Source of the DNA: Candidatus Methylomirabilia bacterium
Lineage (GTDB): Bacteria; Methylomirabilota; Methylomirabilia; Rokubacteriales; CSP1-6
NCBI GenBank assembly: GCA_041499965.1
Contig: JBGQLG010000007.1
Coordinates: 1,647-65,646 of the forward strand
Direction: 5' to 3'
Length of the DNA: 64,000 nt
A model generated the notes under the pieces. The model ran no database searches, was not told where the DNA came from, and worked only from the letters and a program-made list of their open reading frames with translations. The stretch's first letter is position 1; every line of letters begins with the position of its first letter. Of this stretch, positions 6,334 through 49,384 are shown in pieces. Position numbers and translations under genes: made by a program.

Positions 6334-8207
6334 CGTGGTGCCTCCGAAGAATTGGACACCGCGGCCGGGCGGCCCGGTGCGGAGGCAGCCTCCCGGAGCT
6401 GGGCCAGGATGGCCTGATCCATCGCGTCCACCGACGTCAGGTGGATGCGGACCAGCCGCACCCCGTCCCGGGCGACCATCCCCGTGACCTTGCCGTACAC
6501 GTCGCCCGACTCGCGGGCCGGATCGGGATAGGTCAGGCGCAGGCGGACGTTGGCCAGCGCCGCCAGCTCCACGCTCACCGCCGCCTCCAGGGCGCGGCGC
6601 CCCAGGCGGCGGACGGCCCCGGTGAACGCGTCGGCGTGCACGCGCTTGTCCTCGATGATGGCGCCCACGATCGGCAGGTCGACCTCGACCCCGGCGTCGC
6701 CGTCGGCCTCGGTCAGCCGCTGGGCGAAGCGGCCGCGCAGCCCGCGCAATTCGTAGAGCGCGATCGGGGCGGTCAGGCCCTTCAGCTCCACCGTGATCGG
6801 CGGCGCCACCTCGGCCAGATCGGTGAGCCGCTCGGCGGTGGCGGCCGTCATGAGGATCTGGCCACCGACGGTGCAGCCCTCGACGCGGGCGGCCAGGTTG
6901 ACGGCGGCGCCGACCACCGCGTACTTGGTCCGCTGCTCCGAGCCGATGTTGCCCACGACGGCCTCGCCCGTGTGCAGGCCGATGCCCATCTCGAAGACCG
7001 GGCGGCCGTGCTCGGCGTTGGCGCGGTTCAGGTCGTCGTTGGCCCGCTGCATGGCCAGCGCGGTCGCGGCCGCCCGCTCGGCGTGGTCGGCGTGCTCCAC
7101 CGGCGCGCCGAACACCGCGAAGATGGCGTCGCCGATGAACTCGTTGATGGTGCCGCCGTGCGCGATCACGATATCGGCCATGTGGCCGAGGTAGTCGTTC
7201 AGCACCGCCATGACGCCGGCGGGGTCGCCGTGCTCGGCAAAGCGGGTGTAGCCGCGCAGGTCGGACATGAGCACGGTGATCTCGCGCTTGTGGCCGCCCA
7301 GCCGCAGCCCGTCGGGCGACTCCAGCAGCGTCTTGGCGACCTCGGGGGAGACGTAGCGGCCGAAGGCGTTCCGGATGAAGTCCCGCTGGCGCAGTCCCTC
7401 GACCATCTCGTTGAACGCGCGCGTCAGCACGCCCACCTCGTCGCGGGAGCGCACCGGCAGCACCTGCGAGAGGTCGCCGGCCGCCACCCGGGCCACCGCG
7501 CCGGTGAGCGCGCTGATCGGCCGGGTGAGCTGGCGGGCGAACAGCAGGCCCAGCAGCAGCGCGCAGACGGCGCCGGCCGCCGAGCCTTGCATGATCGTGA
7601 GGTCGAGCTCGTGCAGCCGGTCGAGGAAGACGTCGACCTGGTAGTCGACGCTCAGGATCGCCACCGGCCGCCCCTGGGCGTCGACGATCGGCGCCACCGC
7701 GCTGATCCACGTGCCCTTGGCGTTGCGGTAGGCGCCGGTGTAGCGGGCGACGGCGTCCTCCAGGCTCCACGAGATCGGATCGAGCAGCTCGGGAGCGAGT
7801 GGATACCAGGTGCCCGGCCGCTCGGCCTCCTCGCTGGCGACGACGACGCGCGCCCGACGCCCGGCCCGGTCGTAGTCGGTCAGGGTCCGGATGGGCGTGG
7901 CCAGCAGGACCTCCCGCTGGACGGCCGCGAGCTTGGCCCGCAGGCTCCGGTAGGCCGGGGTGTCCTCGCGCTGCGCCTGCTGCACCGCGGCGTGCTGGGC
8001 CGGATCGACCAGCAGGACGGCGACCCGCGCGATGTTCAGCAGCTGGGTGCCGACGGCGTCCTCCAGCTCGGCCTTCTGGCGCGCGCGCACGAGCACCCCG
8101 ACGATCGTGATGCTGAGGAAGGTCAGCAGCGCGAAGGCCACCGCCAGGCGCACGGCCAGGCGCCGCCACGCGGGCAGCGCCGGCCGTGTCGACGGCTGGT
8201 CCGTCAC
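6330..8207 (-). CDS. membrane adenylate/guanylate cyclase (periplasmic sensor - HAMP - class III cyclase - about 130-aa C-terminal extension)
   Basis: Track ORF 6330..8282. The HAMP segment is RPISALTGAVARVAAGDL. The cyclase core reads VLMSDLRGYT...GDAIFAVFG...GLHTGEAVVGNIG...VNLAARVE. The start is placed at GTG 8207, one nt after the doxX stop. Its stop overlaps the ndh start (ATGA). Confidence 0.8.
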   Translation of the reverse strand: MTDQPSTRPALPAWRRLAVRLAVAFALLTFLSITIVGVLVRARQKAELEDAVGTQLLNIARVAVLLVDPAQHAAVQQAQREDTPAYRSLRAKLAAVQREVLLATPIRTLTDYDRAGRRARVVVASEEAERPGTWYPLAPELLDPISWSLEDAVARYTGAYRNAKGTWISAVAPIVDAQGRPVAILSVDYQVDVFLDRLHELDLTIMQGSAAGAVCALLLGLLFARQLTRPISALTGAVARVAAGDLSQVLPVRSRDEVGVLTRAFNEMVEGLRQRDFIRNAFGRYVSPEVAKTLLESPDGLRLGGHKREITVLMSDLRGYTRFAEHGDPAGVMAVLNDYLGHMADIVIAHGGTINEFIGDAIFAVFGAPVEHADHAERAAATALAMQRANDDLNRANAEHGRPVFEMGIGLHTGEAVVGNIGSEQRTKYAVVGAAVNLAARVEGCTVGGQILMTAATAERLTDLAEVAPPITVELKGLTAPIALYELRGLRGRFAQRLTEADGDAGVEVDLPIVGAIIEDKRVHADAFTGAVRRLGRRALEAAVSVELAALANVRLRLTYPDPARESGDVYGKVTGMVARDGVRLVRIHLTSVDAMDQAILAQLREAASAPGRPAAVSNSSEAPR

Positions 8208-9033: not shown

Positions 9034-9122
9034 GTGAGGTCTCCTTCCCGTACGGGCCCGGTGAGTGGAACCGATCCGCGGCGGAGCCCGTCGTCGCCGC
9101 GAGCCGGGGTGCTCTCCTGCTC

Positions 9123-9180
9123 AGACACGGGCCGGGGCGCCAGCGGTGCGAGCGAATCTCGCGGCGGCCGGCCCGTGTCT
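9123..9180 (+). promoter_or_regulatory. 13-bp perfect inverted repeat in the divergent bufA/bufB intergenic region
   Basis: AGACACGGGCCGG (9123-9135) and CCGGCCCGTGTCT (9168-9180) are separated by 32 nt. The spacer contains an inner hairpin GCGAG-CGAAT-CTCGC. The repeat ends 13 nt before the DUF692 ATG. Confidence 0.4.
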
Positions 9181-9192
9181 CACAGCACTGCA

Positions 9193-10062
9193 ATGGACTC
9201 GCGGGTGTCCGGGCCGGGACCGAGGGGAAGCGGCATCGGTCTGCGCTCTCCACATGTTGACGAGATCCTGAACACCCGGCCGGACGTGGGCTGGCTCGAG
9301 GTGCACGCCGAGAACTACATGGGCGGGGGTCCGGCCATCCGGGCGCTGGAGCACATCCGCCGGGAGTATCCGGTGTCGATCCACGGCGTCGGCCTGTCGC
9401 TGGGGAGCGCGGAGGGGCTCGACGGCCACCACCTCGAGCGCCTGGCCGGGCTCGTCGAACGCCTGCAGCCGGCGCTCGTCTCCGAGCACCTCGCTTGGAG
9501 TCTCACCGGCGGCGCCTACCTGAATCACCTGCTCCCGCTGCCGTACACCCCGGAGACCCTGGCCCTCGTGAGCCGGCACGTCGATCGGGTGCAGCAGCGA
9601 CTGGGCCGCCGGCTGCTGGTCGAGAACCCGGCGAGCTACCTTCGCTTCGCCGACTCGCCGATTCCCGAGGCGGAGTTCCTGAACACCCTCGCCCGCCGGA
9701 CCGGCTGCGGCCTGCTCTGCGACGTGAACAACGTCTACGTGAGCTGCCGGAATCTGGGGGGCAACGCGGCCGCGTACCTCGACGCCGTCGATCCGGCGGC
9801 CGTCGGCGAGATCCATCTGGCCGGCCACGCCAGCAACGACGCCGACGGCCACACGGTCCTGATCGACGACCACGGCTCGCGCGTGGCCGAGGCCGTGTGG
9901 AATCTCTACGGCCAGGCGCTCGCGCGCTTCGGGCCGGTGCCGACGCTCGTGGAATGGGACACCAACGTGCCGGCGCTGGTGGTGCTGCTCGAGGAGGCGG
10001 CCAGGGCGGGCGCGATGCTGGGCGCCGCGGAGCGCGAGGGCGGCGATGCCCACGCTGCGTGA
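9193..10062 (+). CDS. bufB: DUF692 / MNIO (MbnB-like multinuclear non-heme iron oxidase) family protein
   Basis: This is the real 3' part of track ORF 8323..10062. [29 protein letters not shown] and VSEHLAW are typical DUF692 TIM-barrel motifs. The exact start is uncertain because there is no good SD before ATG 9193. Confidence 0.85.
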
Positions 10063-35219: not shown

Positions 35220-35243
35220 GTGTTCGGGAGGAGCCGGGCACTC

Positions 35244-36539
35244 ATGGACACATTCACGGCGTCAGCGGGGACCTTGTCCGTCGACACCTTCCGGGCCGAG
35301 CCGGACGGCTGCCTGGGCTACTTGGTGGTGGACGAGCACAGCCGCACGGCGATGGCGATCGATCCCCGCCTGGACCAGGTCGACCGCTACCTGGAGACAC
35401 TCGGCGCACGCGGCCTGCGCCTGGCCTACGCGCTCGACACCCACACGCACGCCGACCACCTCTCCGGCGTTCGCCGGCTCGCCCAGCGCACCGGTGCCTC
35501 GATGCTCGCCCATGCGGCATCCAAGGTGACGGGCCCCGCCCGGCGACTCCCGGGCGGCGCCCGCCTCGAGCTCGGCGGCGTCCGCGTCGACGTCATGGAC
35601 GCGCCCGGCCACACGCCGGATTCGCTGGCGCTGCTGGTCGAGGGACACCTCTTCACGGGCGACGCGCTCTTTGCCGGCGGCGCCGGCCGGACCGACTTCA
35701 TGGGGGGCAGCGCGTCGGCGCTGTTCGACACGCTGCGCACGTTCGAGGCGCTGCCGGCCGACACCGTGGTCCACCCGGGCCACGACTACGTCGGACGTCC
35801 GGTGACGACGATCGGGGAGGAGCAAGCGGGCAACTCCCTGCTGCGCGAGCGCGATCGGACGGCCTTCGTGGCCCGGCTGTCGACCAGGGCCGAGCCACCC
35901 GCCAACATGGCGGCGATCCTCCGTCACAACCTCGAGGAGGTCGACGCGGCGACCGTGGCACCGGCGGAGCTGCAGGCGTTGCGGGCCCAGGCCCCGGGTC
36001 CGTCGATCCTCGACGTCCGCACGCCGCTGGAATTCGAGAGCGAGCACATCGAGGGCGCGCTCAACATCCCCCTGGGCCAGCTGGACAGCCGCCTCGAGGA
36101 TCTCGCCGAGCAGCAGGACGTGGTGATCGTGTGTCGGACCGGCGTCCGGGCGACGATCGCGGCAGAGTCGCTGGCCCGGGCGGGGGGCCGGGCGCGGGTG
36201 CTCGACGGCGGCATGCTGGCTTGGCGCCGCGCGCGGCTGCCGGTCCGAGAGGGGCGCAAGCGGCTGGCCGTCGATCGCCAGGTGCAACTCATCGCGGGCT
36301 CGATGGTCCTCACCGGCGTGGTCCTGGGGACCTTCCTCAACCCCTGGTTCCTCGCGCTGGCCGCATTCTTCGGGGCCGGCCTCACGTTCGCGGGCGCCAC
36401 GGGCACGTGCGGTCTGGCGCTGATCCTCATGAAGCTGCCCTGGAACCGGACGACACCGGCGCCGGCCGCGGGGGGCGCCGCGTGTGCGGCGGGCGGGGCG
36501 GCGGCGACGTGCGCGGCCCCGGCGGAGCCGCACCGGTGA
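35244..36539 (+). CDS. persulfide dioxygenase (MBL fold, ETHE1/Blh-like) - rhodanese - DUF2892 membrane-domain fusion
   Basis: ATG at 35244 after GGGAGGAG. The metallo-beta-lactamase motif is THTHADH. The rhodanese active-site loop is VIVCRTGVRA. The C-terminal YgaP-like DUF2892 has 2 TM helices (GTCGLA). Confidence 0.8.
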   Translation: MDTFTASAGTLSVDTFRAEPDGCLGYLVVDEHSRTAMAIDPRLDQVDRYLETLGARGLRLAYALDTHTHADHLSGVRRLAQRTGASMLAHAASKVTGPARRLPGGARLELGGVRVDVMDAPGHTPDSLALLVEGHLFTGDALFAGGAGRTDFMGGSASALFDTLRTFEALPADTVVHPGHDYVGRPVTTIGEEQAGNSLLRERDRTAFVARLSTRAEPPANMAAILRHNLEEVDAATVAPAELQALRAQAPGPSILDVRTPLEFESEHIEGALNIPLGQLDSRLEDLAEQQDVVIVCRTGVRATIAAESLARAGGRARVLDGGMLAWRRARLPVREGRKRLAVDRQVQLIAGSMVLTGVVLGTFLNPWFLALAAFFGAGLTFAGATGTCGLALILMKLPWNRTTPAPAAGGAACAAGGAAATCAAPAEPHR

Positions 36540-36883
36540 GCCCAACCCAGCGGAGCCGGAGCAAGCCCGTGCTGTCGCGCGAGGCCCTCGAGCTGCTCGC
36601 CACTCGCTTCCGCGCTCTCGCGGACGCGACGCGGCTGTCGCTCTTGCAGGCGCTGTTCGAAGAGGAGCGGACCGTCCAGGATCTGTGCGCCCTCACCGGG
36701 GCATCGCCGGCGAACGCCAGCAAACACCTGGCCCTGCTGTTCGAGCAGGGCCTCGTGGCGCGCCGCCGCGAGGGCCTGTTCACCTACTACAGGATCGCCG
36801 ACGCGACGCTCGAGCGGCTGTGCCGGCTCGTGTGCGGCTCGCTCGCGGAGCGCCACGAGTCGCTGCGAGCCCATCTGGTTTGA
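36536..36883 (+). CDS. ArsR/SmtB-family repressor, BigR/SqrR-like persulfide sensor
   Basis: GTG at 36536 overlaps the upstream stop (GTGA). The wHTH region reads [41 protein letters not shown]. Cys residues occur in helix 2 (DLC) and the C-terminal helix (RLCRLVCG), as in BigR/SqrR. Confidence 0.8.
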
Positions 36884-36955
36884 CGTCGGCCCCGAGGCCC
36901 GGGACGCGTCGGGAATCCCCGACCTGCAGGCGGCCGTCTCAAGAGCGCGGAGGAG

Positions 36956-37294
36956 ATGACGATGACGTCCGAGACAGCGACGATCGCGTTGACCGAGGTC
37001 GGATTCGACGAGGCGGTGGTGGCCCACCCGCAACTCGTCGTCGATTTTTGGGCTCCGTGGTGCGGGCCGTGCCGTGCCCTGGGTCCGGTGCTCGACGAGG
37101 TGGCGCGCGAGGAGGCCGGCCGGGTGGTGGTCGGCAAGGTCAACGTGGACGAGCAGCCGGGGCTGGCGGCGCGTTTTGGTGTCCGGTCCATCCCGACGCT
37201 GGTCTTCTTCAAGGACGGCCGGATCGTCGATACGGTGGTCGGCGCGGTCCCCAAGGCGGAGATCGCCAAGCGGATCGAGGCATTGCGGGACTGA
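36956..37294 (+). CDS. trxA: thioredoxin
   Basis: WCGPC active site in [13 protein letters not shown]...[22 protein letters not shown]. The ATG at 36962 has better spacing to GGAGGAG and may be the real start. Confidence 0.9.
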
Positions 37295-39272: not shown

Positions 39273-39499
39273 TCAGCTCCTCCCTGCGACCGCTCCGAGG
39301 TCCTCCACGGCGAGGCCGAGGGGGGATAGTAGCACGCGCTCGGGGTGGCGGCCGCCCCGGGGCAGGAGTACACTCCGGTTGTCTGGTCGATCGGCCCATC
39401 GGGGCTCAATCAGCTATCAGACCGCGTCACCGGTAGGGTCTTCCGCGTGCTGGGACGTTGCTTAGGGAAGCGGAAGGTCTGCTGCAAGGAGACGTGTTC

Positions 39500-39826
39500 A
39501 TGGCTCAGAAACTCTTCGTCGGTGGTTTGCCGTTCGCCACGTCCAACGAACAACTCCGCAACCTGTTCGCCGAGTGCGGCGAGGTGGCCTCGGCCACCGT
39601 GGTGACGGATCGCGATACCGGCCGCTCGCGAGGCTTCGGCTTCGTCGAGATGGCGACGCCGGAGGCGGCCGACGAGGCCATCAATCGGTTCAACGGACGC
39701 GACTACGAGGGTCGGCGGCTGCAGGTGGAGAAGGCCAAGTCGCCGTCCGCCGGTGGCGGCGGCGGCGGGCGCCCGGCCCGCGCGGCTGGCGGTGGCGGTC
39801 GCGGCGGCGGCGGCGGGCGCTGGTAG
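39500..39826 (+). CDS. RNA-binding protein (RRM/RNP-1) with Gly/Arg-rich tail
   Basis: ATG at 39500 after AAGGAGA. RNP-2 is LFVGGL and RNP-1 is RGFGFVEM. The tail reads GGGGGGRPARAAGGGGRGGGGGRW. Confidence 0.85.
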   Translation: MAQKLFVGGLPFATSNEQLRNLFAECGEVASATVVTDRDTGRSRGFGFVEMATPEAADEAINRFNGRDYEGRRLQVEKAKSPSAGGGGGGRPARAAGGGGRGGGGGRW

Positions 39827-39881: not shown

Positions 39882-40076
39882 CTACTGAGCCTGGAAGCCC
39901 ACCTTGTTGTGCGTGCCGTCGCAGAACGGCTTCTGCGCCGAGGCGCCGCAGCGGCAGAGTGCGATCTTCGGGCGTCCCGTCGTGTCGACCTTGTTGCCCT
40001 GCGGATCCAGGACCTCGACGTCGTCACCTTCGACCAGGTACGGACCGTTGGGCCTGATGCTGATCTTGACGGCCAT
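39882..40076 (-). CDS. CDGSH iron-sulfur domain-containing protein
   Basis: ATG at 40076 after GAGGAGG. MAVKISIRPNGPYLVEG...ALCRCGASAQKPFCDGTH carries the C-x-C-x2-(S/A)-x8-C-D-G-(S/T)-H signature. Confidence 0.8.
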   Translation of the reverse strand: MAVKISIRPNGPYLVEGDDVEVLDPQGNKVDTTGRPKIALCRCGASAQKPFCDGTHNKVGFQAQ

Positions 40077-40140
40077 CCACGTGCCTCCTCGGAGGGATTG
40101 GAAACCGCCCCACCATAGCACGGCGTTACACTGAGGCCCG

Positions 40141-41640
40141 ATGCGCGAGCCGGGTCGGATCCTCCTCGTCGCTTGCTACGAGCTGGGGCACCAGCCGCTC
40201 GCCGTCGCCTGGCCAGCCGCGTTCCTCGAGCGTGCCGGCTACGCTCCCGCCGTGCTCGACCTCTCGGTCGAGCCGTTTGACGCCGAGAAGATCACGCGCG
40301 CCACCTTCGTCGCCATCTCCGTCCCCATGCACACCGCCCTGCGCCTCGGCGTCATCGCCGCCCAGCGCATCCGCCAGCTCAACCCGATCGCCCACATCTG
40401 CGCCTACGGCCTCTACGCCGCCCTGAATGCGAGCGAGTTGCTCGCCGATGCTTGCGTCGACAGCGTGCTGGCCGGAGAGCTGGAAGATGAGCTGGTCGAG
40501 CTCGTCCGCACAGTGGAGGCCGGGGCGGCGGGCGAGGCGGGGGAGGCTCGCAGAGCGAATGCTGTACTGAGCGAACGAGCCTCGCCCGCCGCCCCGGCCG
40601 TCACTTCGCGCACCGTGCTGGGCAAGCTGAACTTCCCCGTGCCGTCACGCCACGCGCTCCCTGCGCTCAAGCAGTACGCGCACGTCGAGCGCGACGGCCG
40701 GCGCGATCTCGTCGCCTACGCCGAGGCCAGCCGGGGCTGCAAGCACCTGTGCCGTCACTGTCCGATCCCGCCCGTCTACGGCGGCCGCTTCTTCGTCGTG
40801 CCCGTGGAGACCGTGCTGGCCGACGTGCGGCAACAGATTCAGGCCGGCGCGGCCCACGTGACGTTCGGCGATCCAGACTTCCTCAACGGTCCGCGCCACG
40901 CGCTGGCGGTGGCCCGCGCGCTGCACGCCGAGTTCCCGCGGGTGACGTTCGACTTCACCGCGAAGATCGACCATCTGCTGGCCCAGCGCGCACACCTGGC
41001 CGAGCTGGCCGGGCTGGGCGGTGTGTTCGTGGTCTCCGCGGCGGAGTCGCTCGACGACGGCGTGCTCGCGCACCTGGCCAAGGGCCACACGCGCGCGGAC
41101 ATCGTCGAGGCGCTGCGCGTGACCCGCGCGGCCGGTATCGCGCTGCGGCCCACCTGGGTGGCGTTCACGCCGTGGACGACGCTTGGGAGCTACCGGGAGT
41201 GGCTCGATTTCCTGGCCGCCGAGGGGCTGGTGGACCACGTCGACCCCGTGCAGTACGGCATCCGGCTGCTGGTGCCGCCCGGCTCGCTGCTGCTCGACCT
41301 GCCCGCGATGACGCCGCACCTCGGCGGGCTGGTGCCCGGCGGCTTCCACCACCGCTGGACGCACCCCGACCCGCGCGTCGATCGCCTGGCCGAGGAGGTC
41401 GCCGCCGCGGTGGCGGCCGCCGCCGAGCGCGACGAGGACGCCGGCCTGACGTTCGACCGCGTGCGCGGCCTCGCCGCGGCCGCCGCCGGGTCTGTGGCAC
41501 CGCCCTCCGTGGCCCTGGCCAAGGGCCGCCCGCGGCCGCCCCGGCTCACCGAGCCGTGGTTCTGCTGAGCGGAGCCGACCCAGGGCCAGTTGGCCCTGTC
41601 CTTGGCCGGCGATGAATCTATGAGTACACTACCGGTCTGA
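40141..41640 (+). CDS. B12-binding-like/radical SAM protein with CUAEP tail; putative selenoprotein (UGA 41566-41568 read as Sec)
   Basis: 475-aa track ORF with a CxxxCxxC motif (CKHLCRHCP). In-frame read-through of TGA gives ...EPWFC-U-AEP-TQGQLALSLAGDESMSTLPV, ending at TGA 41638-41640. A SECIS-like hairpin lies directly downstream of the UGA. If the TGA is a true stop, the CDS ends at 41568. Confidence 0.65.
41574..41610 (+). promoter_or_regulatory. candidate bacterial SECIS element
   Basis: The lower stem pairs GCCG (41574-41577) with CGGC (41607-41610). The upper 7-bp stem pairs CAGGGCC (41581-41587) with GGCCCTG (41592-41598). The apical loop is AGUU. The loop G-U lies 24-25 nt from the U of UGA. 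Confidence 0.5.
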
Positions 41641-41651
41641 GAGGTGACGCC

Positions 41652-41933
41652 ATGAGCGACGATCTCAAGACGAAGGTACAGGACCTGATCGACACGATGA
41701 TCAACCCGGCCGTCGCCGGTCACGGTGGCTTCGTCGAGCTGATCGACGTGCAGGACAACCGGGTCTACCTGCAGATGGGCGGAGGCTGCCAGGGCTGCGG
41801 CGCCGCCGACGTCACGCTGAAGTCGGGGATCGAGCGCCTCATCAAGGAAGAGCTCCCCGAGGTGGCCGAGGTGCTGGACACCACCGACCACTCCTCCGGC
41901 ACCAACCCCTACTACAGCGCCGGCAAGGCGTAG
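41652..41933 (+). CDS. NifU-like (Nfu C-terminal domain) Fe-S cluster carrier protein
   Basis: 93 aa after GAGAGGTGA. HGGFVELIDV...LQMGGGCQGCGAADVTLK carries the CxxC Nfu motif. Confidence 0.85.
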   Translation: MSDDLKTKVQDLIDTMINPAVAGHGGFVELIDVQDNRVYLQMGGGCQGCGAADVTLKSGIERLIKEELPEVAEVLDTTDHSSGTNPYYSAGKA

Positions 41934-41961
41934 CCCTCCGCCGTCGTCGGCAGGTCCACCC

Positions 41962-43191
41962 ATGGACCGGCTGCTCCTCCTCCTGCCGACGACGACGTAC
42001 CGGACCGAGGACTTCCTCGCCGCCGCGCGCACGCTCGGCGTCGACATCGTCTGCGCCTCCGAGAAGCCCAGCACGTTCGAGGCCCACGCGCCCGATCATC
42101 TCCTGACGCTCGACTTCACCGATCCCGACGCGGCCGCGGCCAAGGTGGCCGAGCTGGCCGGCCGGCGCCCCCTGAACGCGGTGGTCGGCGTCGACGACCT
42201 GACCACCGTCGCGGCCGCCGCCATCGCCGAGCGCCTCGGCCTGCGCAGCAGCGCCCTGGCCGCGGTGACGGCCGCGCGTGACAAGTACCAGATGCGCCAG
42301 TGCCTGGCCGCCGCCGGCGTGCCGATCCCGCGCTTCCGTCGCATCGCGCTGAAGGACGATCCGTTCCTGGCCGCGCGCGGCGTCGCCTTCCCCTGCGTGC
42401 TCAAGCCGCTGGCGCTCTCGGCCAGCCGCGGCGTGATCCGCGCCAACAACGTCGATCAGTTCATCGCCGCCTTCCGCCGCATCGCCGCGCTCCTGCAGCG
42501 CGACGACGTGGAGGTGAGCGGCGACGCCGCCCAGTTCCTGCTCGCCGAGCAATACCTGCCCGGCGTCGAGGTAGCGCTCGAGGGCCTGCTGGTCGGCAAC
42601 ACGCTGCACACGCTGGCGCTGTTCGACAAGCCCGATCCGCTCGAGGGGCCCTTCTTCGAGGAGACGATCTACATCACACCCTGCCGCCTGCCCGCCGACG
42701 TGCAGCAGGCGATCGAGCGGGTGACGGCCACGGCCTGCGCCGGGCTCGGCCTCGGCGAGGGGCCCGTGCACGCCGAGCTGCGCGTGAACGACGCGGGCCC
42801 GTGGGTGCTGGAAGTCGCCGCGCGCTCGATCGGCGGGCTCTGCTCGCGCACGCTGCGCTTCGGCACCGGGATGACGCTCGAGGAGATCATCCTCCGGCAC
42901 GCGCTGGGCTGGCCGATCGCCTCGCTGGCGCGCGAGCGCCGGCCGGCCGGGGTGATGATGATCCCGATCCCGCGGGCCGGACGGTTGCAGGCGGTGCACG
43001 GCACCGAGGCGGCCGCCGCCGTGACCGGCATCGAGGAAGTCGCGATCACCGCCCACGTCGGCCAGGAGCTCGTCCCGCTTCCCGAGGGTTGGCAGTATCT
43101 CGGCTTCGTCTTCGCCCGCGCCGACACGCCCGACGCTGTCGAGGCGGCCCTGCGCGACGCCCACGCCCGCCTCACCTTCGAGATCCGGTAG
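41962..43191 (+). CDS. ATP-grasp domain protein (L-amino-acid/carboxylate-amine ligase-like)
   Basis: 409 aa. DKYQMRQCLAAAGVPIPRF, FPCVLKPLALSASRGV, LAEQYLPGVEVALEGL and GPVHAELRV are ATP-grasp_4-type motifs. Confidence 0.8.
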   Translation: MDRLLLLLPTTTYRTEDFLAAARTLGVDIVCASEKPSTFEAHAPDHLLTLDFTDPDAAAAKVAELAGRRPLNAVVGVDDLTTVAAAAIAERLGLRSSALAAVTAARDKYQMRQCLAAAGVPIPRFRRIALKDDPFLAARGVAFPCVLKPLALSASRGVIRANNVDQFIAAFRRIAALLQRDDVEVSGDAAQFLLAEQYLPGVEVALEGLLVGNTLHTLALFDKPDPLEGPFFEETIYITPCRLPADVQQAIERVTATACAGLGLGEGPVHAELRVNDAGPWVLEVAARSIGGLCSRTLRFGTGMTLEEIILRHALGWPIASLARERRPAGVMMIPIPRAGRLQAVHGTEAAAAVTGIEEVAITAHVGQELVPLPEGWQYLGFVFARADTPDAVEAALRDAHARLTFEIR

Positions 43192-43300
43192 CCCACCCAC
43201 GACCCGTTCCGGCCCAGAGTCGAGGGCCTGGATATTGCTCCCATGAGATGGAACCCCGGGCAGCCGCCCGAGGGTAACTCCGACAACGGGAGGACGTGAC

Positions 43301-43621
43301 ATGCAGAAGCTGATGTTCGCGCTGTTGGTCGGGATCATTGCGCTGACACCGGCGATCGTCGCGGCCCAGACGGGCAGCGGCGGCGCGGGAGCACCGAGTG
43401 GCTCCAGCTCGAGCCCGTCGGGGACGTCGGGCAGCCCCGGCACCAGCGCTCCGTCGAGCGGTGGCGCCACCACGGCGCCGGGCGCGGGCGGGTCGACCTC
43501 GCCGTCGGCGAGCCCGTCGGGGAGCAGCACCAAGGACTTCACGACGTTTCACACCAAGGCCGACTGCGAGAAGGCGGGCGGCATGTGGCAGACCGCTTCC
43601 AGCAGCTGCCTGGGCAAGTAG
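43301..43621 (+). CDS. small secreted Ser/Gly/Pro-rich protein with C-terminal two-Cys module
   Basis: 106 aa. A signal peptide (MQKLMFALLVGIIALTPAIVAAQ) is followed by about 55 aa of low complexity, then FHTKADCEKAGGMWQTASSSCLGK. Confidence 0.55.
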   Translation: MQKLMFALLVGIIALTPAIVAAQTGSGGAGAPSGSSSSPSGTSGSPGTSAPSSGGATTAPGAGGSTSPSASPSGSSTKDFTTFHTKADCEKAGGMWQTASSSCLGK

Positions 43622-43779: not shown

Positions 43780-44973
43780 CTAATCCAGCAGCGGGCAGTT
43801 GGGCGGCGACGCCGCCAGCTTCTTCTCGATGATCCCGGCGGCGTAGCGTTCCAGGTAGTGCGCGATCGTCTCCACCCGGATCTTCACCGAGCCGGCCGGC
43901 TTGGTGGAATCGAGGTCCTGGAAGGAGAAGAACAGCGTGCCGGAGCGCTCGATGATCTGCTGCACCGGCGTGTAGGTCGGCTGGTCCATCCCACACTCGT
44001 AGGAGGACATCCGCACCACGCAGGCGATCCACGGGATGCGCGCAGCCACCTTGGCGCCCCACAGGATCTCATTGGTGTTCGACGAGTAGGACGACTGCCA
44101 GACGTCGTGGATGTCGAACGGCGACTTGATGTGGCCGGCCCGGATGTCGTCGCCGAACGCCCACTGCATCAGGTCGTCGTCGATGGGGAAGTACTGCATC
44201 CACAAGATGGGATAGCCGTAGGCCTGCAGGTCGACCTCGATCTCGTGGCCGATGCCGGGATCCATGTGGTACGGCCGGGCCACCACCATGAGGCAGGGCT
44301 TGCTCTCCCGCGCGCACCACTCCAGTACCTCACGCGACTTTTTGCGCAGCTTCTCGTTGAACGTCCGGAGCGCCTGGTAACCTTCGTCCACCGCGCGGGC
44401 CATCTCCTCGCGCGTGAGCCCCGGGACCGCCTCGTGCATCCCCTCGTAGAGCTGCTTGGGGACCAGCCGCGGCTCGTCGAGCGAGACGAACGGTGTGACG
44501 TACTGGATGCCGTTGTCGGCGAAGACGTCGCCTTCCTTGAGGAAGCCGGCCTTGATGTTCTCGGGGGCCGCCATGACGCGCGGACAGGTCAGGGCCTTGG
44601 CCACGTGCCCCGACAGGAAGGAGGGCAGGTTGTAGATCATCGGCGACAGGATGATGTCGAGCTTCTGCCGCTGGCCGAACACCAGCTCGCCGTAGTGGCC
44701 GGACATGCACTTGACCGGGTAGCAGCAGTCGACGGTGCCGCGGCCCTTGCCGAACTGCCGCCCCTGCTCTTCCGAGGTGTCCGAGGAAAAGATGATGTTG
44801 CGCTGGTCGAAGCCCAGACTGCCGAGCAGGCCCACCCAGAACTGATGGGTGTTCCAGAGGTTCAGGACGCGCGGGATGCCGACCCGGAGCTTACTCCTCG
44901 AGGACGGCGGCGGTGTCCCGGGCCCGGCGGAACGCGTCCTTGCGAACCATTTCGGCAACGTTAGGGTAGTCAC
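43780..44973 (-). CDS. acyl-CoA dehydratase activase-related protein (DUF2229)
   Basis: 397 aa. RVGIPRVLNLWNTHQFW and VDCCYPVK are typical of DUF2229 domains, which are usually fused to BcrAD/BadFG activases. Confidence 0.8.
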   Translation of the reverse strand: MTTLTLPKWFARTRSAGPGTPPPSSRSKLRVGIPRVLNLWNTHQFWVGLLGSLGFDQRNIIFSSDTSEEQGRQFGKGRGTVDCCYPVKCMSGHYGELVFGQRQKLDIILSPMIYNLPSFLSGHVAKALTCPRVMAAPENIKAGFLKEGDVFADNGIQYVTPFVSLDEPRLVPKQLYEGMHEAVPGLTREEMARAVDEGYQALRTFNEKLRKKSREVLEWCARESKPCLMVVARPYHMDPGIGHEIEVDLQAYGYPILWMQYFPIDDDLMQWAFGDDIRAGHIKSPFDIHDVWQSSYSSNTNEILWGAKVAARIPWIACVVRMSSYECGMDQPTYTPVQQIIERSGTLFFSFQDLDSTKPAGSVKIRVETIAHYLERYAAGIIEKKLAASPPNCPLLD

Positions 44974-47065
44974 GCTTGACCTCCTCGAGCTTGGCCTTCA
45001 CCACGCGCATCTCGTTGACGTCCTCGACGAGGCCCTTGGGACACGAGTTGCCGCTGATCACGCGCTCCCACCCCTCGGCCAGCGGCAGCTTGCTCCACGC
45101 CCGCCCCTTGGCCCCGGGGAGCTGCACGTCGATGAACGTGCGGGTGCAGTTGATCGGGCACCACTTGCAGACGGTCTCGGCGGCGGTCGTGCTCGTGTAG
45201 GTCAGCGCCGCGATCGCGTCGAAGCCGCGGAAGCGCGAGGCCGGGTTGTTCTTGCGCCAGTCGCCCGCGCACAGCGCCGCCCCGATGGCGCCGGCCTCGC
45301 CCGAGTACGGATGGACCACCACCTCGGCGTCCGGCACCTTGCTGCGGATGAAGTCGACCTGGGCCTTGACCACCGCCATGTTGCGATGGGTGCCGCCCTG
45401 CAGGACGAACTTGCGCCCGGCCGACCTGAGATTCTGGAGCTGGCCGGCGTAGATCCACACGTTGACCGGCAGCACCGCGGCCAGCGCGGCCATGATCTCC
45501 TCGGCCGACCAGCCCTTGCGCTGCTGGTTGACGATGTCGGACTGCAAGAAGACGCCGCAGCCCATGGCCAGGCTCGGCATCGACTTGGCCTCGAACGCGC
45601 GGTCGGCGTAGTGCTCCAGCGGGATGTTGTAGCGTTCGGCCACGCCCTGCAGGAAGGCGCCGTTGCCCGAGGAGCACTGGCTGTTGAGCCGGAAGTCGGC
45701 CACCGTGCCCTGGCGCAGGATCATGATCTTGACGTCGGTGCCGCCCACGTCGCAGATCACATCGGCGTCGGCGTAGAAGTGCAGCGCGGCGGTGGCGTGG
45801 GCCACGGTCTCGACCACGCCGACATCCGCGCCCAGCACGTCCTTGAGCAGGTCCTTGCCGTAGCCGGTCAGCGCCAGGCCGCCGACGTCGGTGAAGCCGG
45901 CCTCGTGCACCTGGCGGAACAGCGACTGGGCATCCTCGATCGGGTTGCCCTTGGACAGCGCGTAGCAGGAGAAGAGCAGCTCGCGGTCGTCGGAGAGGAC
46001 GACCGCCTTGGCGGTGGTGCTGCCGAAGTCGCAGCCGAGCAGCACCGAGCCGACGTGGGCCTCGCGCGCCGGGCACACCGGCGCCGGCCGCACGTACTCG
46101 CTCACGAAGGTGGCGAGATCGCCCTGGCCGCTGATGAGGCCCTTGGCGCCCTCCTTGGCCTTCGCCTCGTGCTGGCCCTCCTTCACCCACCACTCGAGCT
46201 TCTCGCGGCCCTGGTAGACGGCGACCTCGGGCTTCTCGCCCTTGCCGATCTCGACGCAGCCCAGGCAGGCGTAGTAGAGCGCCTCGGTGGGCACGACGAT
46301 GAGGGAGGCCACGTCGCGCCCCTCGGGCAGCTCGACCTTGCGCTGGCTCCACAGCTTGCCCAGGTGGTAGCGCCAGGCCTCCTGCAGTCCCTTGAAGAAC
46401 AGGTTGGGGCCGCCGAGCAGCAGCACCTCCGGCAGCGGCGTGTTGCCCTTGGTCAGCGTGGCCAGGTTCTGGTAGACGACCGCCTCGAACAGGCTGGCGA
46501 TGATCTCCTCGACCGGCACGCCCGTCTTCACCAGCGTGTTGGCGTCGGTCTCGGCGAAGATCCCGCACTTGCTCGAGATCTTGTGCAGGCTCATGTCGGC
46601 GTAGGCCATCTCGGCCAGCCGCTCGGTCGGCACCTGCAGCTTGCGGGCGGTCTTCTCGATGAAGGTGCCGGTGCCGCCGCTGCAGGCCGACTGCATGAAG
46701 ACCTGCTTGGACTTGCCGGTGCCGCTGGCGGTAAAGAAGATGGTCTTCATGTCCTCGCCGCCGATCTCGGACACGAAGCGCACGTCGGGGTGGAGCTGCT
46801 CGACGCAGGCGGCGACCGCCACCACCTCCTGGATCAGCTTGCCCCCCACCTGCGGAGCGATGAAGCCGGCGCCGGAGCCGGTGAAGAACACGCGGTCCGT
46901 CCCGGCCGTGAGGCCGACCTCGGTCTCCATCCGCCCCAGGAACTCGACGACCTTCTCGGCCTGCTTGGTGTTGTGCCGCTGGTAGTCCTGCCAGGTGACC
47001 TTGCCGTTCTCGACGACGGCGGCCTTGACGGTGGTCGAACCGACGTCGACGCCGACGAGCTTCAC
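44891..47065 (-). CDS. double BcrA/BcrD/BadF/BadG/HgdC-type ATPase (CoA-substrate-specific enzyme activase)
   Basis: GTG at 47065 overlaps the upstream stop (GTGA). There are two ASKHA ATPase repeats (VGVDVGSTTVKAAV and LGCDFGSTTAKAVV), each with cluster-bridging Cys regions. It is the real 3' part of track ORF 44891..48361. Confidence 0.85.
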   Translation of the reverse strand: MKLVGVDVGSTTVKAAVVENGKVTWQDYQRHNTKQAEKVVEFLGRMETEVGLTAGTDRVFFTGSGAGFIAPQVGGKLIQEVVAVAACVEQLHPDVRFVSEIGGEDMKTIFFTASGTGKSKQVFMQSACSGGTGTFIEKTARKLQVPTERLAEMAYADMSLHKISSKCGIFAETDANTLVKTGVPVEEIIASLFEAVVYQNLATLTKGNTPLPEVLLLGGPNLFFKGLQEAWRYHLGKLWSQRKVELPEGRDVASLIVVPTEALYYACLGCVEIGKGEKPEVAVYQGREKLEWWVKEGQHEAKAKEGAKGLISGQGDLATFVSEYVRPAPVCPAREAHVGSVLLGCDFGSTTAKAVVLSDDRELLFSCYALSKGNPIEDAQSLFRQVHEAGFTDVGGLALTGYGKDLLKDVLGADVGVVETVAHATAALHFYADADVICDVGGTDVKIMILRQGTVADFRLNSQCSSGNGAFLQGVAERYNIPLEHYADRAFEAKSMPSLAMGCGVFLQSDIVNQQRKGWSAEEIMAALAAVLPVNVWIYAGQLQNLRSAGRKFVLQGGTHRNMAVVKAQVDFIRSKVPDAEVVVHPYSGEAGAIGAALCAGDWRKNNPASRFRGFDAIAALTYTSTTAAETVCKWCPINCTRTFIDVQLPGAKGRAWSKLPLAEGWERVISGNSCPKGLVEDVNEMRVVKAKLEEVKRDYPNVAEMVRKDAFRRARDTAAVLEE

Positions 47066-48600
47066 GAGATCCGCCGGCCCATCTTCTGGGCGACGTGGAG
47101 GACGACCTTGGCCGCGGTCCCGCACGTGGTGTTGTCGTGCGGGATCTTGTAGGTGGCCTTCTTCATCTCGGGATGGGCGTGCAGGTAGGCGCGGACCTCG
47201 TCGAGCGTGAGGCCGGTCCGGGCCAGCACGTCGTCGAACTCGCGCTGGGCGCGCTTCTTGGCCTCGGTGAGGATCATCTGGCAGCGCGAGAGCGCGTGGA
47301 CCTCGGCGTCGCCCTTGATCTCCAGCGGCGCGTAGAGGATCTCCGGGTACTTGCCGAGCACGCCCGACATGGCGCCGATCGACATCGTGTTCGGCATGCA
47401 GGAGTACGGCGACAGCTCGCAGATCATGTGGGCCTTCTTCTTCTGGTAGGCCCAGATCGCCTTGCCGACCAGCATGTCGCCCTCGCCCCCGTCCAGGCGG
47501 CTGTGGAAGTACGGCGCGGCCAGCCGCCGCAGCTCGAGCTGGTGCGGCATCTCGTGCGGCACGTTGCCCATCGCCCGGCGCAGCCGGTTGACGGTGAGGC
47601 GGAGGATGCCCTGACCGAGGCGGCCGAGGCCCAGCTTGAGCCGCGCGCCCTTCTCGATGCCGCTGTAGTCCTCGAAGCGCTGCAGGCCCAGGCGCAGCAG
47701 GTAGTCCATCCAGATGGTGATGCCGGCCGGGTAGACCTCGCCGCCCTCGGCCTCGAGCCAGCGGTGGATGTTGTAGTTCGGGTCGCCCTCGACCGTCTGC
47801 AGATAGAACTCGCCGGTGATCTTTACCTTCGGCTTCACCCGCAGCCGATCGACCTCGATCTCCGAGAACTTCCGGTACACCTCGCGCATGGCCCGCGTGA
47901 AATACGGCGTGGTGAGGTGCCACAGCACCGATGTCTTCGGCGACATCGTGGGCCGGTTGCGGAAGACCTCGGAGAGGTAGTCCACGCACTCCTTGACGAC
48001 GGCCTCGGTCTGGCCGGGCAGCACCTCGTAGGGCCGCACCTGGTACTCGAGGTCCTGCACGAGGTCGGTGCAGAAGATGCCCCACAGGCAGCCGAGCGTC
48101 ATCGGCAGGTTCAAGTCCAGGCCGTCGCCCATGTTCTGGTCCAGGTTGTCTTGGGCCATGAGGAACATGCGGAAGGCGCCGAGCCCGCTGTTGCGCAGCG
48201 CCAGCTCGTAGCTCTGGTGGTACTGGCCGAACCGGCAGGCGCCGCAGGAGCCGGCGGTGAGGTAGACGAACTTCTTGTTCACCTCCTCGACGCTCGACTG
48301 CTTCGATTCCTTCTTCAGGAAGTTGACGAGGTTGCCCGTGGTGAAGCTCGTCGGGCAGCATTGCCCGATGTCGGCGACCTCGCGGCCGGTCAGGAGGTCT
48401 TCCTTGGTGGCCACCGGGAGGATCTGAGCCTTGTAGCCCGTGCCCTCCAGCACGGCCTGGATGACCCGCTCGATGCGCCAGTGCAGGCCGCCGAACAGGA
48501 TGGTGGTCGCGTCGCGCTCGGCGCGGGTGAACGGCTTGGGGGTGTACGCGCGGTAGTGCTCAGTTGAGAGCGTCGCCATTGCGTCCTCCGTGTAGCCCAT
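47062..48600 (-). CDS. 2-hydroxyacyl-CoA dehydratase-like / activase-associated Cys-rich protein
   Basis: 512 aa. DIGQCCPTSF and AGSCGACRFGQY are Cys motifs consistent with Fe-S binding. I recall the family as the partner domain of activase fusions. Confidence 0.75.
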   Translation of the reverse strand: MGYTEDAMATLSTEHYRAYTPKPFTRAERDATTILFGGLHWRIERVIQAVLEGTGYKAQILPVATKEDLLTGREVADIGQCCPTSFTTGNLVNFLKKESKQSSVEEVNKKFVYLTAGSCGACRFGQYHQSYELALRNSGLGAFRMFLMAQDNLDQNMGDGLDLNLPMTLGCLWGIFCTDLVQDLEYQVRPYEVLPGQTEAVVKECVDYLSEVFRNRPTMSPKTSVLWHLTTPYFTRAMREVYRKFSEIEVDRLRVKPKVKITGEFYLQTVEGDPNYNIHRWLEAEGGEVYPAGITIWMDYLLRLGLQRFEDYSGIEKGARLKLGLGRLGQGILRLTVNRLRRAMGNVPHEMPHQLELRRLAAPYFHSRLDGGEGDMLVGKAIWAYQKKKAHMICELSPYSCMPNTMSIGAMSGVLGKYPEILYAPLEIKGDAEVHALSRCQMILTEAKKRAQREFDDVLARTGLTLDEVRAYLHAHPEMKKATYKIPHDNTTCGTAAKVVLHVAQKMGRRIS

Positions 48601-49384
48601 CGACGGGCCGGACGTGCCGATCCATCCACGCCTCGAGAAGTTGCGCTCGCTCGAATCCAGGTAGCTTGCGAATAGTCTCGTCGACCTTGCGGGCCGCCGC
48701 GCGGCCCTCGTCGCCGGCGAAGAGATAGCGGGCCATGAACGCCAGCTCGGACTGAGGGGCGACTCCGCTGCCCACCGGCGCCCAGAAGCGATCGACCAGG
48801 GCGCGGGCGACCCAGGCCGCTCCCCGGCCGCGCAGCCGGAGCTCGGCCTGACGGTAGTAGAAGAAGAAGTGGCGCGACTCGTCGACCATGATCCGCTCGA
48901 GGAGCTCGGAGAGGACCGGATGGCCGGCCACGGCCTTGAGCCGCAAGTAACCGGTCAGCGTCGTGAGCTCGTTGATCGCCCCCCAGGTCATGTGCACCGC
49001 GCAGAAGTCGGCCCACATCTTCGACACCGTGGCCGTGGCCCAGCCCTCCAGGCGCTTGGTCAGCGGCTCCTGACCGCGCGGCGTCGCGCGCGGCGGCACC
49101 GGATGCCCCGCGGCCTCCAGGAACCGGGTGATGGCGATGCCGTGGAAGGTCTCCTCGTGAACCCAGCACGCCAGGAACGTGGCGACCTCGGGATCGTCGA
49201 TGGCGCGGGTGGCCAGCAGCGAGCGCAGGTAGATGATCGTGTGGCTCTCGATGTCCTGCATGTAGGTCAGCGTGCGAACGACGGCCGGTGACACCGGATA
49301 CTTCCCCACGTCGGCCCAGGCGATCGCGTCCAGGTCCAGCGCACCGGAGCGTGCCACCCAGGCGTCGAGGTCAAACGCAGGCAT
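48560..49384 (-). CDS. ferritin-like diiron-carboxylate protein (acyl-ACP desaturase-like)
   Basis: 274 aa with an E...ExxH...E...ExxH ligand pattern (DIESH, VHEETFH, INELT, VDESRHF). It overlaps the next gene by 41 nt. Confidence 0.7.
   Translation of the reverse strand: MPAFDLDAWVARSGALDLDAIAWADVGKYPVSPAVVRTLTYMQDIESHTIIYLRSLLATRAIDDPEVATFLACWVHEETFHGIAITRFLEAAGHPVPPRATPRGQEPLTKRLEGWATATVSKMWADFCAVHMTWGAINELTTLTGYLRLKAVAGHPVLSELLERIMVDESRHFFFYYRQAELRLRGRGAAWVARALVDRFWAPVGSGVAPQSELAFMARYLFAGDEGRAAARKVDETIRKLPGFERAQLLEAWMDRHVRPVDGLHGGRNGDALN

Follow-up and report, generated by a model that had tools for sequence, protein, structure and literature searches.

Among radical S-adenosylmethionine (SAM) enzymes, ArsL of arsinothricin biosynthesis is described as the sole canonical-fold member for which transfer of the aminocarboxypropyl group from SAM is known. 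ArsL cleaves SAM at the Cγ-S bond to give methylthioadenosine (MTA) and a 3-amino-3-carboxypropyl (ACP) unit, and it forms the C-As bond found in arsinothricin. As(III) is bound by the C-terminal cysteines of ArsL, without which no product is formed; a variant with two tail cysteines has the highest activity on methylarsenite, an Fe-C intermediate is formed on the unique iron, and the sections consulted report no requirement for cobalamin. Here we analyze a locus encoding a relative of ArsL in a stretch of 64,000 nucleotides (the window) from Candidatus Methylomirabilia bacterium (GenBank assembly GCA_041499965.1, contig JBGQLG010000007.1, positions 1,647 to 65,646 of the forward strand). The window has a G+C content of about 71%, and its nearest protein relatives carry Rokubacteria or Methylomirabilota names. 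A radical SAM (rSAM) gene is followed by genes for a NifU-like protein and an ATP-grasp ligase, and the region 40141-43191 is best explained as a compact three-gene operon for a conserved but uncharacterised small-molecule pathway. The coordinates of these genes and of their two flanking genes, together with the gaps of 11 nt, 28 nt, 64 bp and 109 nt between them, had been given in a first-pass annotation made from the sequence alone, and all were correct when rechecked (Table 1).

Several other described systems resemble parts of this locus. In systems of the BacD (bacilysin), DdaF (dapdiamide) and BL00235 type, an ATP-grasp ligase joins a proteinogenic amino acid with an unusual partner amino acid; the window ATP-grasp has the same L-amino-acid ligase (LAL) domain set but falls in no named equivalog, and it is highly conserved and widespread, not sporadic. 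NfuA resupplies the clusters consumed by LipA, and the locus is like the NfuA-dependent rebuilding of clusters in LipA and MiaB in that an Nfu- or NfuA-type carrier is encoded beside a radical SAM enzyme; unlike those enzymes, the window rSAM has no auxiliary-cluster cysteines, C200, C204, C207 and the tail alone being invariant. In MerA (ending in CCAG) and thioredoxin reductase (ending in GCUG), a flexible C-terminal arm brings Hg(II) or reducing equivalents to a buried active site. The adjacent Cys-Cys or Cys-Sec on such an arm is the apparent likeness to the rSAM, whereas their host fold is that of a flavoprotein disulfide reductase. The selenocysteine-assisted organometallic (SAO) locus and the HgcA CU-motif selenoproteins (Haft & Gwadz 2022 preprint) share with the rSAM family the rare CU dipeptide and an association with MerB-like proteins, but they differ in their proteins and in the genes that make up the set, and no SAO genes occur in the window. 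SAO is found in anaerobes only, whereas the rSAM family is common in lineages generally viewed as aerobic soil bacteria. CU motifs were described by Haft & Gwadz as rare and concentrated in metal-handling selenoproteins.

The radical SAM selenoprotein and its relation to ArsL

The rSAM protein matched the NCBIfam model NF040546, "CUAEP/CCAEP-tail radical SAM (seleno)protein", with 651.4 bits (cut-off 500) over model positions 1-467 of 468. The next-best NCBIfam model was NF040542, that of ArsL, with 301.5 bits, and the third reached 46 bits. Judged by these comparisons, NF040546 is an uncharacterised sister family of ArsL, which is by far its nearest characterised relative. The first-pass annotation had placed the system in no pathway and had missed both the membership in NF040546 and the sisterhood to ArsL.

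The two proteins share a common layout, with an N-terminal Rossmann or B12-binding-like domain (29.3 bits against PF02310 in the rSAM, below the gathering score of 32.1), a core with one CxxxCxxC cluster motif (C200-x3-C204-x2-C207; Pfam Radical_SAM, 44.7 bits) and a Cys-rich C-terminal arm, which in the window protein reads E471-P-W-F-C475-U476-A-E-P-T. The three core cysteines are invariant in 60 sequences. The arm motif, E-x-W-[FY]-C-[U/C]-A-E-P-T, holds a vicinal Cys-Sec pair and is strongly conserved in the family. The motifs PTxxxFxPW, Q...RL..GS.LL and W.HPD..D are shared with ArsL, and ArsL-like sequences with KRCCIKC tails align with the rSAM over their full length at 34-35% identity over about 420 residues. 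Approximately 45 of 58 family-conserved positions, distributed across all domains, are identical in two of these ArsL-like sequences (P0351 and P0373).

The family is represented by 473 cluster representatives (50% identity) at E<=1e-30, and relatives are encoded by 592 or more stretches of species-representative genomes. It is far more widely distributed than ArsL: the best 80 of these loci fall into 14 named phylum-level groups and CCAEP members are named from Actinomycetota, whereas arsQML occurs mostly in Proteobacteria. The partners also differ: ArsL has ArsM and ArsQ, and the rSAM has Fe or Fe-S carriers together with an LAL ligase. The one paper found that mentions NF040546 terms its structure and function "not well known", and our literature searches found no publication linking the family to ArsL, an LAL ligase, Fe carriers or MerB-like proteins.

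The rSAM gene encodes a selenoprotein of 499 amino acids, and its internal UGA is not a chance stop. Read through the TGA, the C-terminus becomes ...TEPWFC-U-AEPTQGQLALSLAGDESMSTLPV followed by the stop codon, so that the tail EPWFC-U-AEPT continues with QGQ. Of 83 related loci, 60, drawn from many phyla, have a TGA at the equivalent position followed by in-frame AEPT.xQ[LF], and other family members have a cysteine codon (TGY) in its place. About 14 nt 3' of the UGA lies a hairpin resembling a selenocysteine insertion sequence (SECIS) element, with a conserved AGUU-type loop and with compensatory changes among 22 diverse sequences. In the alignment of these 22 sequences (A2), 83% of cells are paired and 24 cells carry compensatory changes. 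Its covariation score was 0.499 as compared with 0.254 for shuffled alignments, none of 500 shuffles reached 0.499, and all slid registers scored worse. It is because the TGA and AEPT are kept across phyla and the downstream hairpin covaries that we regard the rSAM as a selenoprotein, as the family model also describes with its C-terminal C-[U/C]-A-E-P motif, in-frame UGA and SECIS-like element. Scans of the window against Rfam and for tRNA genes gave no matches, and a scan for promoters and terminators was uninformative.

The rSAM family is a selenoprotein family in the majority of sampled lineages. Among the best 120 database matches to the rSAM, all stop at ...WFC, since public gene calls end at the Sec codon, so that 9-25 residues, the AEPT motif among them, are missing from the C-terminus. 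The JGI name for rSAM relatives, "YgiQ (UPF0313 family)", is misleading.

An AlphaFold2 model was made of a natural CC homologue, P0245, and not of the window protein. The mean predicted local distance difference test (pLDDT) score was 93.5, with values of approximately 80-87 in the tail, which suggests that the predicted C-terminal arm of the rSAM is ordered and docked. A sequence search of the PDB found no ArsL structure, the best match being AprD4 (2.6e-10).

Linkage, fusions and operons across genomes

The NifU-like protein is a stand-alone carrier domain of the Nfu/NfuA type, with 84.5 bits against Pfam NifU (PF01106) and a CxxC motif in the context GGCQGCG. It is not a full-length NfuA, as its 93 amino acids score 92.8 bits against TIGR03341 (cut-off 269) and cover model positions 106-190 only; two-domain NfuA forms are present at other loci. 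The ATP-grasp protein exceeds the gathering scores of ATPgrasp_N (44.8 bits), ATP-grasp_4 (101.3 bits) and LAL_C2 (71.8 bits), and its nearest solved structures are the LALs BL00235 (3vot, 4.1e-36) and BacD (about 5e-17). By domain content and structural relatives it is thus assigned to the L-amino-acid-ligase type. Its NCBIfam matches are all far under their cut-offs (BacD, 73 vs 850; DdaF, 45 vs 840), and the protein does not cluster with a named primary-metabolism family; clustering with one is what the first-pass annotation had named as counting against its proposal.

The entire 20-kb region is common to close Rokubacteria and is thus uninformative about function, and for this reason a scan at the species level was made. 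One genome per species was scanned with the family alignment, and the best 80 of the at least 592 loci were analyzed. Within 3 kb of the rSAM, an orthologue of the LAL-type ATP-grasp (47-90% identity) was found in 35 of these 80 loci, an Nfu, NfuA or IscA-type carrier in 33, YggX, a protein of Fe(II) trafficking and protection against oxidative damage, in 19, and any of these Fe or Fe-S carriers in 52. An Fmt-like formyltransferase scoring under the fmt cut-off (14 loci) and DUF169 (12 loci) were found within the same distance. The ATP-grasp was linked in 8/10 loci from Acidobacteriota, 11/12 from Methylomirabilota, 4/8 from Planctomycetota, 3/9 from Nitrospirota, 5/18 from Chloroflexota, 2/3 from Myxococcota, 1/1 from a possible proteobacterium, and 1/6 from unassigned metagenome-assembled genomes (MAGs). 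The linkage therefore spans seven named phylum-level groups and one unassigned MAG, on either side and on either strand.

There are at least eight gene orders, in which the ATP-grasp is upstream of the rSAM, downstream of it, convergent with it, or spaced from it by Nfu or DUF169. So many arrangements across phyla argue for selection for linkage and not for inherited synteny. Translational coupling or overlap occurs in several lineages, and in many Chloroflexota loci the YggX stop codon overlaps or abuts the rSAM start. By our own estimate, the chance of finding one specific gene family within 6-8 kb of a genome of about 5 Mb is approximately 0.1-0.2%, and the frequency of linkage is orders of magnitude above this. 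In the reverse test, metagenomes were scanned with an ATP-grasp alignment (first sequence from Chloroflexota). This gave 80 metagenome loci, of which 23 have the rSAM next to the ATP-grasp; among the 29 loci with at least 2.5 kb on both sides, 11 do. Clustering of orthologues placed Nfu (24 loci), YggX (15) and Fmt-like genes (11) within 4 kb of the ATP-grasp in the 80 loci. The linkage of rSAM, NifU-like carrier and ATP-grasp claimed in the first-pass annotation thus extends beyond local synteny.

One Chloroflexota MAG (L040) carries, at 7327-8136 on the minus strand, a gene for an ArsM-like SAM methyltransferase whose N-terminus has a CC..C..C pattern, about 2 kb upstream of an Fmt-like/YggX/rSAM/ATP-grasp set. 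Its position recalls the arsL-arsM pairing.

Fusions were sought among 150 family representatives. In P0379 (850 amino acids), an LAL ATP-grasp that is 34% identical to the window protein is fused to an rSAM with a CCA tail. In P0253, an rSAM with a CCAEPT tail is joined through a Pro-rich linker to a MerB-like domain, whose WCAWD and FCS motifs we take to resemble the catalytic Cys-Asp-Cys of MerB. This second fusion occurs in five separate 90% clusters, comprising P0253 and four more at 60-73% identity.

MerB-like proteins are also found in the actinomycete operons of CCAEP-type rSAM genes. In Catenulispora rubra, assembly GCA_015356825.1, genes for MerR, MerB-like and ArsR-type proteins are followed by rSAM, DUF169, an ArsR-type regulator, an LAL ATP-grasp, a pyridoxal phosphate (PLP) decarboxylase and a C39 ATP-binding cassette (ABC) exporter. 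The order in a Nonomuraea sp., assembly GCA_040802095.1, is rSAM, methyltransferase, aminotransferase, dioxygenase-like, MerB-like, DUF169, MerB-like, and then a divergent TetR regulator. The same core, from rSAM to the first MerB-like gene, is found on a 7.3-Mb contig, with two LAL-type ligases flanking a major facilitator superfamily (MFS) pump downstream and a divergent pair of DUF169 and MerB-like genes upstream. Taken over these operons, the aminotransferase is of class I/II and the dioxygenase is HilA-like; there are two MerB-like proteins and either one or two LAL ligases, the exporters are of the MFS or C39-ABC type, and the regulators are of the MerR, ArsR or TetR type. The methyltransferase resembles 2-ketoarginine methyltransferase, which together with an aminotransferase makes the usual pair for beta-methyl amino acids. 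By their gene content, these operons look like small-peptide gene clusters. The extra genes of the actinomycete operons, such as MerB-like, were not found in the window. DUF169 has been reported beside HgcA-like genes in Nitrospina.

A possible pathway and its alternatives

The three genes very probably form a real functional module, and the trio probably makes a small amino-acid-derived compound. How it might do so can be proposed by analogy with ArsL. The rSAM would bind SAM on its single [4Fe-4S] cluster and cut the Cγ-S bond as ArsL does, giving MTA and an ACP unit. A flexible Cys-Sec arm, in the role of the CCxxC tail of ArsL, would hold a soft heteroatom (a chalcogen, metalloid or metal) and swing it into the active site, and joining of ACP to the soft atom would produce a gamma-substituted 2-aminobutyrate-type amino acid. 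The Nfu protein here, and NfuA, IscA or YggX elsewhere, would load or repair a cluster that is labile to turnover or to oxygen. Such a role is made plausible by the Fe-C intermediate of ArsL and because many of the lineages carrying the family, soil bacteria among them, are generally regarded as aerobic. The ATP-grasp would activate a carboxylate as the acyl phosphate and couple the new amino acid to a second one, giving a dipeptide.

We favor this scheme as a whole, ACP transfer to a soft atom on the Cys-Sec arm followed by ligation, only tentatively. Cleavage of SAM of the ACP type, as argued from the similarity to ArsL, has slightly less than an even chance of being correct. The arm may present the acceptor atom, although we would put this somewhat below even, and we hold the action of the ligase on the rSAM product with a similar reserve. 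The CU motif, the association with MerB-like, MerR and ArsR proteins, and DUF169 suggest a soft metal, metalloid or chalcogen as the acceptor but are not decisive. In an extended form of the proposal, which we consider unlikely, a selenoenzyme present in hundreds of species from at least 14 phylum-level groups would carry a soft element on its Cys-Sec arm and link it to ACP (C-Se, C-S, C-As, C-Sb, C-Te or C-Hg). The enzyme would feed a dedicated LAL to make a new organo-element amino acid or dipeptide, dedicated Fe or Fe-S carriers would repair the cluster that forms the Fe-C intermediate, and the MerB-like proteins would act on the new carbon-element bond as lyases or chaperones.

A number of observations weigh against ArsL-like chemistry coupled to ligation. 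Our best guess is that the rSAM works like ArsL, yet on three counts it does not look like a member of that family. Its score against the ArsL model lies below the cut-off (301.5 vs 450); its tail has no third cysteine and offers two chalcogen ligands where ArsL has RCCLKC; and no ArsM-like gene or ars context occurs in the window, an ArsM-like methyltransferase being near the rSAM in 1 of the 80 genome loci (L040), so that an arsenic context for the rSAM was rejected. Three histidines that are invariant in NF040546, H64, H206 (within CxHxCRHCP) and H316, are replaced by F, Y and M/L in ArsL-like sequences. This implies that the substrate pocket differs and that the regiochemistry of SAM cleavage could differ as well. 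The P0379 fusion is a singleton on one contig, MerB-like proteins score far under the MerB cut-offs, and a search for MerB-like domains found none in the window and none in 160 loci, including the 80 genome loci. No functional study of NF040546 was found in our literature searches. Of 39 well-flanked rSAM loci, 20 have the ATP-grasp and about half do not, and the ATP-grasp is found with an NfuA-like gene, or with YggX and an Fmt-like gene, where there is no rSAM within 8 kb (Table 1). Because a carrier is kept beside these rSAM-free ligases, the tie of the Fe carrier to the ligase may be as strong as that to the rSAM. The linkage of rSAM, carrier and ligase is real but loose, a neighborhood and not an obligate operon.

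Some of the same evidence would fit a canonical enzyme that makes a 5'-deoxyadenosyl (5'-dA) radical and abstracts a hydrogen from a C-H bond of a small amino acid or dipeptide (for rearrangement, dehydration as in AprD4, or alkylation), with the Cys-Sec pair as a redox tail that supplies an electron or hydrogen atom to quench the product radical and the ATP-grasp acting before or after. Foldseek searches with the P0245 model returned generic class-B radical SAM folds (AprD4, OxsB, TsrM, MiaB, MgmA), and the best of these, AprD4, OxsB, MiaB and MgmA, are class-B-like 5'-dA enzymes; AprD4 and MiaB are not known to use cobalamin. The family-specific histidines missing from ArsL-like sequences suggest a different active site, and vicinal Cys-Sec is a classic redox couple, as in the GCUG terminus of thioredoxin reductase. 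On the other hand, ArsL at 301 bits is far more similar than the 5'-dA-type families, none of which exceeds 46 bits, the arm occupies the place of the substrate-binding cysteines of ArsL, and a purely redox tail leaves the MerB-like, MerR and ArsR associations unexplained, so we regard a 5'-dA enzyme as unlikely. Alternatively, the system would serve to detoxify or traffic metals or metalloids and not to make a product. The arm would trap a toxic soft element such as As(III), methylarsenite, Sb, Hg, Te or Se, from which an amino-acid conjugate would be formed by the rSAM and processed for export by the ligase and transporters. ArsL itself is a precedent, CU motifs are enriched in metal-handling selenoproteins, MerB-like fusions exist, MerR/ArsR regulators and MFS or ABC exporters occur in actinobacterial loci, and one Chloroflexota MAG has an ArsM-like methyltransferase gene at a distance of 2 kb from its rSAM. 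But ars and mer resistance genes are absent from the window and from most of the 80 loci, the window operon has neither a regulator nor an exporter of its own, and in Rokubacteria the conservation of the trio is that of a housekeeping operon, with 87-100% identity of the ATP-grasp among the best 120 matches. The actinobacterial operons, moreover, contain natural-product tailoring enzymes (the beta-methylation methyltransferase/aminotransferase pair and a dioxygenase), and detoxification appears to us distinctly unlikely.

The secreted 106-residue peptide, encoded on the same strand downstream of the ligase, raises the idea of a pathway for a ribosomally synthesized and post-translationally modified peptide (RiPP), in which the rSAM and ATP-grasp would modify this peptide with the CDGSH protein as electron donor. 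Enzymes of both types do occur in RiPP pathways, as is generally known. The peptide is confined, however, to L002-L005, where 60% identity extends over a part of the sequence. Neither L001, which has an rSAM 82% identical to that of the window, nor any of the 80 genome loci contains it. A domain search detected no SPASM or RRE domain, the RiPP methyltransferase model TIGR03975 gave 30.7 bits against a cut-off of 281.85, the ligase has the architecture of an LAL and not of a RiPP macrocyclase, and a protein with a Sec signal peptide is an unlikely substrate for cytoplasmic enzymes; a RiPP pathway is very improbable. As the peptide is not conserved, this reading is left without support, and of the "small-molecule or peptide-modification pathway" put forward in the first-pass annotation, the small-molecule core is upheld by the linkage and the peptide modification is not. 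It is also improbable that no pathway is shared and that the rSAM has a general Fe-S carrier and a ligase unrelated to it as neighbors by inherited synteny. The 20-kb synteny of close Rokubacteria (uninformative by itself), the genomes without linkage and the ATP-grasp genes without a nearby rSAM would fit this view, but adjacency recurs in seven named phylum-level groups in varied order and orientation and well above the chance frequency, an ATP-grasp-rSAM fusion exists, and the genes are translationally coupled or overlap in several lineages.

Neighboring genes and significance

Table 1. Positions of the features discussed. Unprefixed coordinates are those of the window; others are preceded by the locus.
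Feature	Coordinates	Strand	Remarks
Radical SAM (rSAM) selenoprotein gene, 499 aa	40141-41640	+	translation; stop codon 41638-41640
Sec codon, in-frame TGA of rSAM gene (U476)	41566-41568	+	
SECIS-like hairpin GGGCC-AGUU-GGCCC (41583-41596)	41582-41598	+	covariation and single-sequence fold
NifU-like gene, stand-alone Nfu/NfuA C-terminal domain, 93 aa	41652-41933	+	11-nt gap 3' of rSAM
ATP-grasp ligase gene, LAL architecture, 409 aa	41962-43191	+	28-nt gap 3' of NifU-like gene
CDGSH [2Fe-2S]-type protein, divergent	39882-40076	-	Pfam zf-CDGSH 70 bits; end 40121 with upstream GTG
106-aa signal-peptide-like open reading frame (ORF)	43301-43621	+	109 nt 3' of ATP-grasp gene
DUF2229 protein, double BcrAD/BadFG acyl-CoA-dehydratase-type activase, two proteins without family match	43780-49384	-	activase TIGR00241, 227 bits
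RRM-type RNA-binding protein, Gly/Arg-rich tail	39458-39826	+	NF058537 "RNA-binding regulator" 94 bits, cut-off 100
Metallo-beta-lactamase (MBL)-fold hydrolase/rhodanese/YgaP-like membrane fusion (Blh-like, under cut-off), ArsR/SmtB-family (BigR-like) regulator, thioredoxin	35220-37294	+	
Actinomycete-type CCAEP rSAM operons	L168:8001-14573, L170:6512-17158, L169:1079-12146		
rSAM-free ATP-grasp and carrier loci	L136:3549-5493, L138:7965-10001, L103:7998-11222, L113:7989-10732		

The CDGSH gene starts 64 bp from the rSAM if read from its ATG, as in the public gene call on the same contig. We found it in Methylomirabilota-type loci only (L001-L009, with exceptions, L011-L014, L132-L134, L147, L152, L154 and L159). 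In L001, a MEDS-domain gene (9094-9888, minus strand) lies between CDGSH and rSAM, which shows that the divergent arrangement is not fixed. The CDGSH protein was rejected as a component of the system, being lineage-specific and at most an accessory such as an electron donor. The 106-residue ORF starts with a stretch resembling a signal peptide, is rich in Ser, Gly and Pro in its middle part and has a C-terminus ending ...KADCEKAGGMWQTASSSCLGK. The first-pass annotation had described both proteins as flanking the candidate system and had proposed a check of neighborhood conservation; in our scans, NifU-like and ATP-grasp genes do recur beside rSAM homologues, whereas CDGSH does not outside the Methylomirabilota-type loci, and the secreted peptide drops out as well, given its confinement to four loci.

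Downstream of the peptide, the DUF2229 and activase genes are syntenic with the rSAM in Rokubacteria only, and a link to the double-cubane family (NF040772) was rejected. Co-variation of activase and dehydratase-like genes with selenium traits has been reported (PMC5322559; Haft 2022), but their adjacency to the rSAM here is a matter of Rokubacteria synteny only. A 1156-residue ORF at 44891-48361 has a spurious Arg/Pro-rich N-terminal extension overlapping the real 512-residue gene at 47062-48600. On the other side of the operon, the gene for the RRM-type protein lies between peptide ABC permease genes and the CDGSH gene, and close Rokubacteria have it too. A set of three genes (35220-37294) is located about 3 kb upstream of the rSAM, present in the window contig and not in L001 or L002, that looks like a persulfide or sulfite detoxification module.

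ArsL has been studied as a rare, arsenic-specific curiosity, and NF040546 is its much larger sister family, already catalogued but uncharacterised. The proposal is testable, since Cys-Cys versions occur in the cultured actinomycetes Catenulispora rubra and Nonomuraea sp. NPDC050783, in operons resembling small-peptide clusters. If the chemistry is shared with ArsL, the family would be a second and widespread example of non-canonical SAM cleavage, and it would point to a new family of gamma-substituted amino acids or dipeptides in hard-to-culture phyla of soil and groundwater, namely the Rokubacteria, Acidobacteriota, Nitrospirota, Chloroflexota and Planctomycetota.

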